Counted from the stretch's first letter, positions 56,801 through 62,440 are shown. The stretch: DNA of 64,000 nt from Octopus vulgaris (GCA_951406725.2 OX597830.1:44578001-44642000); one strand, 5' to 3'. The notes: generated from the letters alone by a model not told the origin. Translations and numbers: made by a program.

Positions 56801-59800
56801 TTGCTCACACCTTTCCAGAAGCAAGAACGCGTCGATTGCTCGAGGGTGAATTTGGAGATGTGCCAAGAAGATGAGTCAAAATTTTTCAAAAGACTGATTA
56901 CACAGGATGAAACCTGGGTCCATCACGATGATCCAGAGACCAAAGCCCAGTCAATGCAGTGGAAGCACCGTGACTCACCCCCTCCAAAGAAGGCAAGGGT
57001 GCAGTCCTCCGCTGGCAAGGTCATGCTCACAGTCTTCTGGGACCAGGACGGAGTAGTGATGACAGATTTCCTGGCAAAGGGTACCACAATTGCAGGAGCC
57101 TATTATGCTTCACTTTTGAGGAAATTAAGAGAAGTTATCAAAATCAAGAGGCGGGGCAAGATCAGCAAAGGCATCCTCCTCCTGCAGGACAACGCTCCGG
57201 TCCACAACTCGCTTGTCGCCAGATCAGAAGCACAGGCGTATGGCTATGAACTCCTCCCCATCCCCCTACTTTCCTAACCTTGCACCCTCTGATTTTCACC
57301 TCTTCCCAATCATGAAGTTGTGTTTGAAAGGAAAGCGTTTCCCAGATGATGCAGCCTTGATTTCTGAAGTCACGTTGAAGTTGGAGGACCAAGCTGGGTT
57401 CTTCTACAAAAACGGTCTCCAGAGCCGCATCAAACGATGGGAGAAATGCGTAACTCTGGATGGTTCCTATGTAGAAAAAGACTAATAACTGTGCCAAGTT
57501 TCGTTGCTCTACTGCTATGGGAAGTGGGTCAGGGGCATTACTTATTGAACGCCCCTCGTAACAGAAGAAATTGATACCTTAAAAATGATTCTATTCTCAT
57601 ACATATATACATACATACATACATACATACATACATACATACATACATACATACATATATATATATATATATCTGTGTGTGTGTGTGTGTGTGTGTGTGT
57701 ATGTATGTATGTATATATATATATATATATATAAATTAATAAAAAATGGCCAAAAAAGATAAGAAAAACAACAATATGGTACATGCAAATTGTTAATAAG
57801 ACGCTCACAGAAGGAAGGAAAGAAAGGGTGTTTTACGTTTCGAGCAAAGGTCTTTTTCAGATACAGGAGACAGAGTAAAATCCAAGAGAAAATGAAGTCA
57901 AAGGGAACATAAGGATTCACATAGAATCGGGTACTTGAAAATATATGTACCAGGTAGGGTTGGATAAACTGTGTTTCCGGTCAATGTTTGATAAGTATCA
58001 AATAGGATATTCTGGTTGTGTACACAGAGAAACCCAACTTTATGAACATCGGACACGTATGAGAAAAGATGGAAGCAAGTGGTATGCGTGTTGGGAATGA
58101 AAGATCCTACATGAGTGTGTCCATAAAAGGTTAACAAAAAAGGTTTCAGTAGAGGAACGCGTTCCGCGGGGTCATAACCGTTCCCCCACTCCATCAGTAC
58201 TTTGCTTTGTTCGTCCCCTCATTCGATATATTTCCGTAAAATTTTCAAATTCATTACGTAAATACCATTCGCTTACGTAGACCCCGCATTTCATTTTGTA
58301 TTGTCCCTCTGTGTTTGGTCCTTGTGGTCGAAATAAAAGTCATTCGTAATTTCTCCTTTTTTGGTACGTGTTTAATTTCTGCTGAAAGTTTTGGCGTGAA
58401 CGGTTGTTTTTGTGTGCTGCTTTGCAGCAGTCCTTTTTAAAGCCACCATTCGTTTGGTGGTTGTGAGTCGTTGAGAAAATGAAAAGCTATGCTGAATGAA
58501 GAGAGGGTCGAACGTGTGTCGGCTCGAGTGTGCTGAAGCAGAATGTATTCTTTCCCGACTCGGAACTGATGAAGAAATGTGGAAGTTTGATTAAGAGGGA
58601 GGGGTCAAATGTAAAGCTGTCCCTTCCAGAGCGAGAGCGCGCTGTAATAAGAAATAGGACGATAACATACAGAACTTTTAAATTTCTAAATATCTCAGAG
58701 ATATAAGCAGTGGTGGTAGGATAGAGCAGTTGTATATTGCCAACTTAACGTGACAGTCCCATAAAGGGAATCACACCACCGCTATTTAGCCCTAGGAAGC
58801 ATCAACGCTTCCTGTCGGCCTTGACACATTTGCTGTGTCCTTATGTTTACATGGGGGAGACAAGCACCCCATCCAGCTAAGCTTGCATCCAGAGACATGT
58901 TTCTGAGTCTTTCTCGTCATCAGTATGGAGTAGCATGACTTTTTCTCCGTTTGTGTATCTTTAATTTCTCCCAGCTGCAAATACGTCTCTTCCATCTGTT
59001 CTTCTTTATCTTTGAGCTTAAACAACTTTAGATTTCCTCGCCATATACTTCTTCGTTTTGCAGTTCCATCGCTCTCAATATCTCTTCTATAGTTGGTTCC
59101 TCAGTGTCACCGTTCTATGTTATATTCTCTGCCATTCCTCTACCCATTTCCGTTTCTTCTAAAGTTGGTGAGTTTTTCAAATACTTCTCTTCCATCTGTT
59201 CTTCTTTATCTTTGAGCTTAAACAACTCTAGATTTTCTCGCTTTGTTTCGTCTTCGTTTTGCAGTTCCATCGCTCTCTCTATCTCTTCTATAGTTGGTTC
59301 CTCAGTGTTACCGTTCTGATATGTTATATTCACGACTATTCCTTTACTTTTTTCGTTTCTTTTAAAGTTGGTGACTTTTTACGTTCTCTCTTCCTGCTCT
59401 TCACCATATTCATTCTATTATTGTTTCCCTTCTTCACTTCGTCGTCTGCTTTTTCTTCCACCGTTGTATCCAACCTTTTCTCTACTTCTGCATTCGGGCA
59501 TTTCCTTCGCATATGCCCCCTCATGCCACACAAGTAGCATTTTGGGGGTCTTCCCTGCAGCACAATATCCAACTTTTCACCGGTCGGTAATTCTACCGTT
59601 TCCGGTATTTCCTCATAGTATTCTGAGGTTATGCCGCAAACTGCTTCAATTTCATAACCCCCAAAATTCAAACATTGTGTCTTGCTCACTTTTAGTACGT
59701 TCAACTTTGTATTTCCTCTCTTCAAATTCTCTCCGAAGATTCCCACTATTACCCATTCAGGCTCTATTATGGGTGGGATTCTCCCAACTCTAATTTTCAC

Positions 59801-62440: not shown

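Follow-up and report, generated by a model that had tools for sequence, protein, structure and literature searches.

The stretch of the Octopus vulgaris genome analysed here, a window of 64,000 nucleotides (GCA_951406725.2 OX597830.1:44578001-44642000; G000:C17:44578001-44642000 in the searched assembly of 2.80 Gb and 227 contigs), contains a nested pair of mobile elements: a ~355-bp repeat with a predicted hammerhead ribozyme, or retrozyme, and a long interspersed nuclear element (LINE) that carries only its first open reading frame (ORF1) and is inserted just 5′ of the hammerhead core. Across the genome, about three-quarters of the tails of this LINE group occupy a site just 5′ of such a core, in several divergent retrozyme families. 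The insert, which an initial annotation of the window had set aside in favor of the repeat around it, is the most unusual part of the locus.

The nested locus

A direct repeat (58690-58813 and 60397-60520; 92% identity, spacing 1707) brackets the insert. Subtraction of the insert and one copy of its target-site duplication (TSD) gives a period of 349 bp (1707 - 1345 - 13), and the same operation on 58671-60520 leaves 492 bp, or 1.41 units, in agreement with the minus-strand array of about 1.4 units originally described. The hammerhead string quoted in that description is present on the minus strand, with C3 at 58923, and its 82-bp inverted end resolves into two arms of 82 nt each (60428-60509 and 60512-60593; 98% identity), with the center of the fold-back at a natural hairpin of the retrozyme unit. 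The boundaries proposed for the insert and its 13-bp TSD hold, although this is not the full element: in four paralogous loci it reaches up to 1.83 kb and has an AATAAA tail, and the window copy is without the last ~525 bp. The older element that the retrozyme splits (Table 1) is directly preceded by another LINE-like tail ending in AATAAAA (58120-58345), which suggests another stacked pair of the same LINE group.

Judged by its sequence, the window copy is likely dead, since it has a single core, a helix I mismatch that is absent in its paralogs, and a deleted LINE tail. The mismatch, a U-U, results from TCCATA in place of the TCCAGA found in 99 of 115 copies binned as family A, a bin that includes a few rows of another family.

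Table 1. Features of the nested locus in window coordinates; unit positions are numbered as described in the text
Feature	Coordinates	Strand	Remarks
Retrozyme 3′ piece	58671-58938	-	Duplicated helix I 5′ strand, hammerhead and unit positions 1-256; long ("tailed") 3′ end
Predicted type I hammerhead	58888-58929	-	
Hammerhead helix I 5′ strand	58929-58924	-	One mismatch in the window copy
Hammerhead nucleotide C3	58923	-	
Hammerhead nucleotide C17	58894	-	Predicted cleavage after this position
Hammerhead loop III		-	Palindromic, CATG
Hammerhead helix I 3′ strand	58893-58888	-	
Insert TSD, copy adjoining the hammerhead core	58926-58938		13 bp, exact
Predicted ORF1-only L1/Tx1-type element	58939-60283	-	Internal 201-bp duplication
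ORF1-like open frame	59336-60226	-	296 aa stop to stop, CCHC zinc knuckle
Insert TSD, upstream copy	60284-60296		
Retrozyme 5′ piece	60284-60520	-	Unit positions ~112-354
Inverted head-to-head arm	60501-60593	+	Unit positions 112-204, short 3′ end
Likely TSD of retrozyme insertion, left copy	58667-58678		12 bp, 1 mismatch to right copy; sequence read directly
Likely TSD of retrozyme insertion, right copy	60592-60603		Sequence read directly
Host element, 5′ part	about 58473-58680		
Host element, older ORF1-like frame akin to the insert's ORF1	60575-61450	+	Split by the retrozyme

The retrozyme family and its ends

Genome searches revealed a high-copy, dispersed family. A 249-bp retrozyme query returned 2651 first-look candidates genome-wide, the best 40 of which were scored, a second retrozyme piece returned 1946, and an exact 31-nt core pattern occurred at 95 genomic places versus 0 for the control. 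A sister family, B, is 75-80% alike to family A and equally abundant (3027 first-look candidates), and a period of ~355-360 bp is common to additional families (C, E, H, I among others). We mapped 154 loci, all of them best-scoring, within the best few percent of copies, and therefore biased to intact ones; these gave 142 clusters of at least 60 bp, in which pieces split by an insert are counted twice. Unit positions are numbered from C3 of CUGAUGA in the natural 355-bp unit of locus L011. The initial proposal of a ~350-bp tandem unit stands insofar as natural tandem units outside the window measure 354-355 bp and pure three-core arrays exist at C1:169.83 Mb and C13:10.72 Mb. It does not extend to long arrays: most clusters span 1-1.6 units, and these two are the only ones of the 142 with at least two strict cores on one strand. 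Family H also has an intact tandem (L399:124-533), with a 358-bp period and a U3-A8 core variant. In four sequencing runs, guessed to be RNA, the unit is present in assembled contigs, which give no strand, ends or circles; no RNA dataset is listed on record as holding it.

The annotation had called the hammerhead minimal. In PMC4209133 (this and the other papers cited below are represented by excerpts), the minimal form is defined by the lack of helix III and loop 3, a helix II of 7-8 bp and a helix I of 4-5 bp, and the canonical metazoan type I hammerhead is expected to act in dimeric form. In family A, helix I is 6 bp long, helix II is 3-4 bp long and, as had been correctly recognized, loop III is palindromic (97 of the 115 binned copies, CATG alternating with CTAG); by these definitions the family hammerhead is of the canonical type I form, and we regard it as a predicted ribozyme. 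Among 13 structure representatives, hand-picked and registered by eye, helix I was 96% paired versus 71% with shuffled partners (0 of 5000 shuffles as high), pairs 2-4 of helix II were 95% paired versus 86% (2 of 5000 as high), loop III was palindromic in 10, and the core covaried from C3-G8 to U3-A8. The family copies thus bear out the claim of a non-coding repeat with a conserved core and covarying stems. Single-sequence folding did not yield the active hammerhead fold, as expected because helix III is one pair.

The ends of the mapped clusters resemble those of Penelope-type insertions. Retrozyme 3′ ends cluster at unit positions ~204 (short) and ~245-263 (long), the ~55 bp between them forming an optional tail, and 5′ ends are scattered. 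Of the 142 clusters, 49 are inverted. After removal of the window and its C17 paralog clusters, single-ended clusters number 88, with a long end in 49, a short end in 36 and an end elsewhere in 3, and 44 head-to-head clusters were tested for end pairing, and 8 with one end outside both classes were dropped. One short and one long end were paired in 32 of the remaining 36 (50% expected, p=9e-7); three were long-long and one was short-short. A TSD score of at least 9 was obtained for 20 of the 32 short/long copies versus 7.6% of mismatched flank pairs, and retrozyme TSDs are mostly 12-14 bp and AT-rich, some of them being microsatellites. The window copy fits this pattern, with ends at 256 and 204 and a 12-bp, one-mismatch duplication inside the older ORF1-like element.

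We infer from the short/long pairing that there is one start site per strand in a single event. Penelope protein has been described to nick both strands and extend them from two sites within the RNA, one on either side of the tail (PMC11167929), inverted Penelope copies carry the tail on one end (PMC3846280, PMC8557442), and Penelope mobilises foreign sequence in trans (PMC3846280). It is likely, from the form of the insertions, that the retrozyme is spread by Penelope-type enzymes: a Penelope protein with reverse transcriptase (RT) and GIY-YIG domains would nick both strands and, for each of them, begin reverse transcription at a different internal site of a retrozyme RNA that is multimeric or circular. 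The original suggestion of mobilisation by a Penelope-like element is thus supported by the insertion anatomy, but its autonomous partner was not found.

Several results count against the retrozyme and Penelope assignments. With at least two strict cores in only 2 of 142 clusters, the sample contains few intact dimer templates. The first pair of helix II is C-A in 84 of the 115 binned family A copies. Rfam, a check that had been recommended, gave no hammerhead model match in the window (E<=5) or in copies of families A, B and C; the only match, to Hammerhead_HH9, was a weak one in a single family H copy (L399; 29.1 bits, cut-off 52). Among 18793 first-look candidates, the best 150 of which were scored, no autonomous Penelope element with the unit in its sequence came to light, and no Penelope ORF adjoins a retrozyme unit in the loci examined. 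A 784-aa Penelope-like family was rejected as partner, its likeness score to the unit being 38 versus a shuffle mean of 36.

That family (L318-L347, e.g. G000:C7:103976543) is young, with many open frames at 99% identity, and itself has two 3′ ends, ~835 and 880-900 bp past the stop; a pattern search found no hammerhead in it. ORFs near L221 and L280 were likewise rejected as partners, having no unit sequence in common, and an old Penelope fragment on the upstream side of the C2:33.29 Mb copy, at a distance of 0.8-1.4 kb, was not contiguous and was not counted. Rfam miRNA matches in the scans were set aside as hairpin and microsatellite noise.

An alternative is that the unit is the pseudo-long terminal repeat (pLTR) of an autonomous Penelope-like element, its copies being the 5′-truncated ends of that element. 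Most copies do measure 1-1.6 units and have Penelope ends, and in Xenopus retrozymes are closely related to pLTRs (bioRxiv 10.64898/2026.07.22.740005). In addition, an ATG inside the core of the window copy opens a 42-codon reading frame, reminiscent of PAc, whose ORF begins in its hammerhead (PMC11167929). A pLTR of this kind is hard to reconcile with the resumption of unit sequence upstream of the core at a 355-bp period, with the two pure three-core arrays, or with the lack of an adjoining Penelope ORF at any unit examined, these being the best-scoring few percent of copies, and we consider it improbable.

The LINE and its site before hammerhead cores

By its sequence features, the insert is classed as an ORF1-only element of L1/Tx1 type. 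Its ORF1-like frame matches zf-CCHC at E=0.0016, below the curated cut-off, and among 10 listed inserts searched with the window ORF as query, ORF1 was matched in 9 and ORF2 in none. ORF2-bearing relatives encode an apurinic/apyrimidinic endonuclease (APE), an RT and a zf-RVT domain, all broken by stops or frameshifts; an ORF1 homolog lies upstream of the partner ORF2, whose best PDB match is human L1 ORF2p (E=5.8e-40). The zinc-knuckle ORF1 presumably points to Tx1 for this LINE group. No named Tx1 reference was found among the RT homologs, which carry no useful names.

The junction between the insert and the helix I 5′ strand of the hammerhead recurs at unrelated loci. In a first search for tails, assessed by eye on the best 40 of 164 candidates with the four paralogs merged, 31 of 37 lay on the hammerhead register. 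We then counted blind to downstream sequence, using an exact 20-nt tail pattern that occurs at 97 places (control 0). A strict core, defined as TGAYRA, a spacer and GAAAC within 12-32 nt after the tail, follows 41 of them (control 0), where ~0.06 are expected from a chance of 0.00063 per random window position. Among the other 56 tails, 29 match the target 5′ strand above a 99% null, a set that has one likely false member and misses four tails with visible cores, and 33 do so by eye. Degenerate or stacked cases included, 70-74 of the 97 tails are on target. The 18 complete partner tails lie before a core in 9 cases, inside a core in 1 and elsewhere in 8, and three of the nine on-target ones have common flanks. 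PMC4494074 terms an element target-specific when >20% of its flanks fall in one target class; the proportions here are 41/97 (strict) and 70-74/97 (relaxed) for the ORF1-only elements and 9/18 for the partner.

In most loci tested, retrozyme sequence continues upstream of the insert at the ~355-360-bp period, and LINE elements stack head to tail at the target site. Eighteen TSD-flanked rows with a downstream core, one of them probably a false core, have TSDs of 13-24 bp and many different 5′ ends. In a comparison of loci L348-L407, listed by eye and comprising events that are not all independent, TSD-flanked inserts of at least 1.5 kb made up 17 of 19 on-target versus 2 of 11 off-target cases (p=1.8e-4). 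The tail-hammerhead junction is spanned by a contig of organism D, and a junction four bases longer occurs in contigs of organisms A, B and C.

Targeting has been repeated rather than inherited, because near-identical inserts lie in targets that are only ~60-63% identical: L399 and L364 have inserts 94.6% identical in targets 61-63% identical, and L398 and L406 have inserts 90.3% identical in targets 60-62% identical. Conversely, the insert of L403 is 61-63% identical to those at C10:0.91 Mb and in the window group, where the targets are 82-90% identical. Given this discordance, co-descent of the LINE and its target was rejected. In a tree built from 83 tails, 20 changes of target label were counted in all (minimum 6, shuffled 43.7), of which no fewer than four, for families A and C, are required by starred branches. 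The bootstrap of this tree is unsettled, and the count is approximate because the labels came from a loose pattern (some B2 under B, H under C).

These observations bear on the possibility that there is no targeting, and that a few chance insertions were amplified by Penelope hitchhiking or segmental duplication. Hitchhiking is visible, one junction is common to eight C17 copies, three partner copies on C1 have common flanks, and target labels cluster on the tail tree. Even so, we find this explanation very unlikely. It is largely refuted by the near-identical inserts in ~60%-alike targets and by the converse pairs, and it does not account for the many different 5′ ends and TSD boundaries or for elements stacked head to tail at a single site. 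The sites are confined to a ~20-nt zone of the 355-bp unit, even though other positions upstream of the 3′ end would also be open to cargo.

The strength of the site preference is tempered by a number of findings. About a quarter of the ORF1-only tails and 8 of the 18 partner tails are off target, the tail pattern was built from copies already known, and 4 of the 41 strict matches represent one duplicated event. Many on-target tails are Penelope-carried copies and not separate insertions, and many have no TSD, so that the 70-74 of 97 are copies and not independent events. The register is loose: counted from C3, TSD start points range from -14 to -31 and TSD end points from -17 to +3.

Two pairs of off-target tails deserve mention. 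Those at L352 and L210 (G000 C1:146.85 Mb and C9:79.38 Mb) have nearly identical following sequence, marking either a second repeated target or a duplication. Two partner tails, at L232 and L244 (G000 C17:56.75 and 79.22 Mb), have an identical non-hammerhead flank that is probably part of the C17 duplications.

Penelope RT could also have created the LINE-hammerhead junctions directly, by switching templates between retrozyme and LINE RNA. Many junctions do lie without a TSD within Penelope-type insertions, and one partner tail joins inside a core. Two switches would be needed, however, to mimic a 13-24-bp TSD with retrozyme sequence in register upstream, and off-target copies have TSDs of the same length. 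The predicted hammerhead cut lies ~30 nt downstream of the junction, so no RNA end is expected there. We therefore regard template switching as highly improbable.

The LINE-retrozyme composites likely ride as Penelope cargo as well. Head-to-head insertions with a LINE inside and short/long outer ends occur at C10:12.39, C6:86.05, C2:56.80 and C7:78.21 Mb; the C2:56.80 Mb insertion spans 7.3 kb and is bounded by an AT-rich direct repeat of 21 bp, and the TSDs of 4 of 5 cargo insertions fall in microsatellites, where they cannot be judged. Being copied as cargo from a position upstream of a retrozyme 3′ end would give the LINE a second route, and its presence inside Penelope-type insertions implies that a retrozyme 3′ end suffices for mobilisation in trans.

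Taken together, the anatomy of the locus, the copy number, the covariation, the paired 3′ ends and the LINE site bias, which is independent of target ancestry, are in our judgment very probably best explained by a Penelope-mobilised retrozyme, a LINE that targets the site before its core, and hitchhiking of the LINE on the Penelope machinery. We propose that an autonomous L1/Tx1 partner supplies an ORF2 protein that would nick 14-31 nt before the core and integrate the ORF1-only elements through target-primed reverse transcription, leaving a TSD of ~17 bp. The TSD would rebuild the helix I 5′ strand, so that a complete hammerhead would follow the element. Read-through transcripts with target sequence at both ends would likely favor full-length integration on target, as described for R2.

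How the site is chosen can be viewed in two ways. Targeting may be due purely to an ORF2 endonuclease that reads DNA sequence, as in Tx1L or Keno, so that RNA, structure and the ribozyme would play no part; this concerns the mechanism alone and is compatible with the rest of our explanation. Target choice in the Tx1 clade is attributed mainly to the endonuclease (PMC4494074), and here TSD lengths are similar on and off target, with the same weak preference for a junction between C and A in both. Yet the targeted 5′ strands of different families are little alike, with identity between hammerhead regions down to 52-62% for the most distant pairs. The spacing to the core is variable, and full-length inserts are far commoner on target than off it. 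We hold an endonuclease acting by itself to be a serious candidate that falls short of probable. The more ambitious view is that the LINE lineage homes to hammerheads as such, recognizing the fold or the RNA of divergent retrozymes instead of one set DNA word; the TSD would rebuild the ribozyme, this borrowed ribozyme and transcription of the host repeat would yield RNAs whose ends match the target and guide the following insertion, and the Penelope route would add to its spread. We put this forward tentatively and consider it doubtful as a whole; if true, it would describe a three-tier parasite system of Penelope, retrozyme, and a LINE with ORF1-only riders.

Genomic surroundings and comparison with known systems

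The window also contains LSDAT (TRPM) exons on the minus strand (27829-28011, 22802-22972 and 18453-18611), the first of which lies 30.7 kb from the composite, on its 3′ side. The retrozyme was originally placed sense to the TRPM pre-mRNA; it is indeed on the same strand, but a location inside the pre-mRNA is not supported, because the first LSDAT exon is that far away. Pfam returned nothing for five candidate exons near the locus, giving no TRPM 5′ exon beyond the retrozyme. About 27 first-exon LSDAT matches on C17 (42.9-44.6, 56.9, 67.4-69.1 and 79.3-79.6 Mb) point to a large TRPM gene expansion. The composite was duplicated with the region, the same 5′ junction occurring in eight C17 copies, and thus marks eight duplicated segments that it could help to order. 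A Mariner-type element at 56266-57561, bounded by terminal inverted repeats of 40 bp and containing a Transposase_1 frame (E=1e-23), is absent from four paralogous loci and is therefore younger than the duplication. Translations read by eye indicate decayed LTR-retrotransposon-like pol and RTE/CR1-like LINE fragments at 39840-41755 and 48263-51473, and 53492-53866 is a 184-bp tandem duplication of 97% identity.

Parts of this system are already in print. Retrozymes and their Penelope link have been described (PMC7229834; bioRxiv 10.64898/2026.07.22.740005), the latter account treating retrozymes as non-autonomous Penelope-like elements, and so has the targeting of other transposons by Tx1 elements (PMC4494074). 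The literature listings hold no LINE that targets hammerheads or retrozymes, though Repbase, subscription papers (Kojima and Fujiwara 2004) and supplements may hold one, and the excerpts of an O. vulgaris repeat paper (PMC13282606) contain neither "ribozyme" nor "retrozyme". With these results, ribozyme repeats join the targets of site-preferring LINEs, and the question arises of how a single enzyme locates the equivalent position in sequences that are only ~60% alike. Should the guide be structure or flanking RNA, this would be a mode of targeting unlike that of fixed-sequence Tx1 or R2, with relevance to retrotransposon-based insertion tools. The short/long pairing, for its part, is a genomic observation that sharply limits models of the unsolved Penelope cycle, in which each event would use a single start site on each strand.

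The octopus repeats resemble the retrozymes of Mytilus galloprovincialis, with their 350-390-bp repeats (PMC7229834), in having a non-coding unit of ~350 bp and 42% GC, a canonical type I hammerhead, thousands of copies and some tandem arrays. They differ in being mostly dispersed as 1-1.6 units with explicit Penelope ends; LINE targeting is absent from the passages of the mussel account. With Penelope insertions (PMC11167929, PMC3846280, PMC8557442) they have in common head-to-head 5′ inversions, palindromic junctions, a tail on one end, AT-rich targets and short TSDs. The tail is ~55 bp in the octopus repeat versus 30-40 in Penelope, the repeat has no ORF, and the pairing of one short with one long end, 32 of 36, is quantified here, in contrast to the excerpted earlier accounts.

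Tx1-clade LINEs have targets in other repeats, Tx1L inserting in Tx1D, Tx1-Mar in Mariner-N4 and Keno in U2 (PMC4494074). The octopus LINE is similar in its APE type, one preferred site in another repeat, a TSD of ~16-17 bp, head-to-tail stacking, non-autonomous riders and a proposed reliance on flanking transcription. Unlike the Tx1 elements in those excerpts, it targets the helix I 5′ strand of a hammerhead in families that are 52-62% alike at their most distant, its TSD would rebuild the ribozyme, and it appears to hitchhike on a second retrotransposition system. HAL1 (half-L1) elements, reportedly described by Bao and Jurka in 2010, are said to have ORF1 only, a LINE tail, a TSD and an ORF2-bearing relative. 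The octopus insert is like them in its lone ORF1, LINE-type tail, TSD, and ORF1 homolog in an ORF2-bearing relative, and is distinguished by its preference for ribozyme repeats and the CCHC knuckle of its ORF1. R2, finally, inserts in 28S ribosomal DNA and encodes its own 5′ ribozyme similar to that of hepatitis delta virus. Both R2 and the octopus LINE have a transcribed multicopy target, and flanking target RNA is proposed to aid precise integration; the octopus LINE, rather than carrying a ribozyme of its own, would borrow the hammerhead of its host repeat at its 3′ side.

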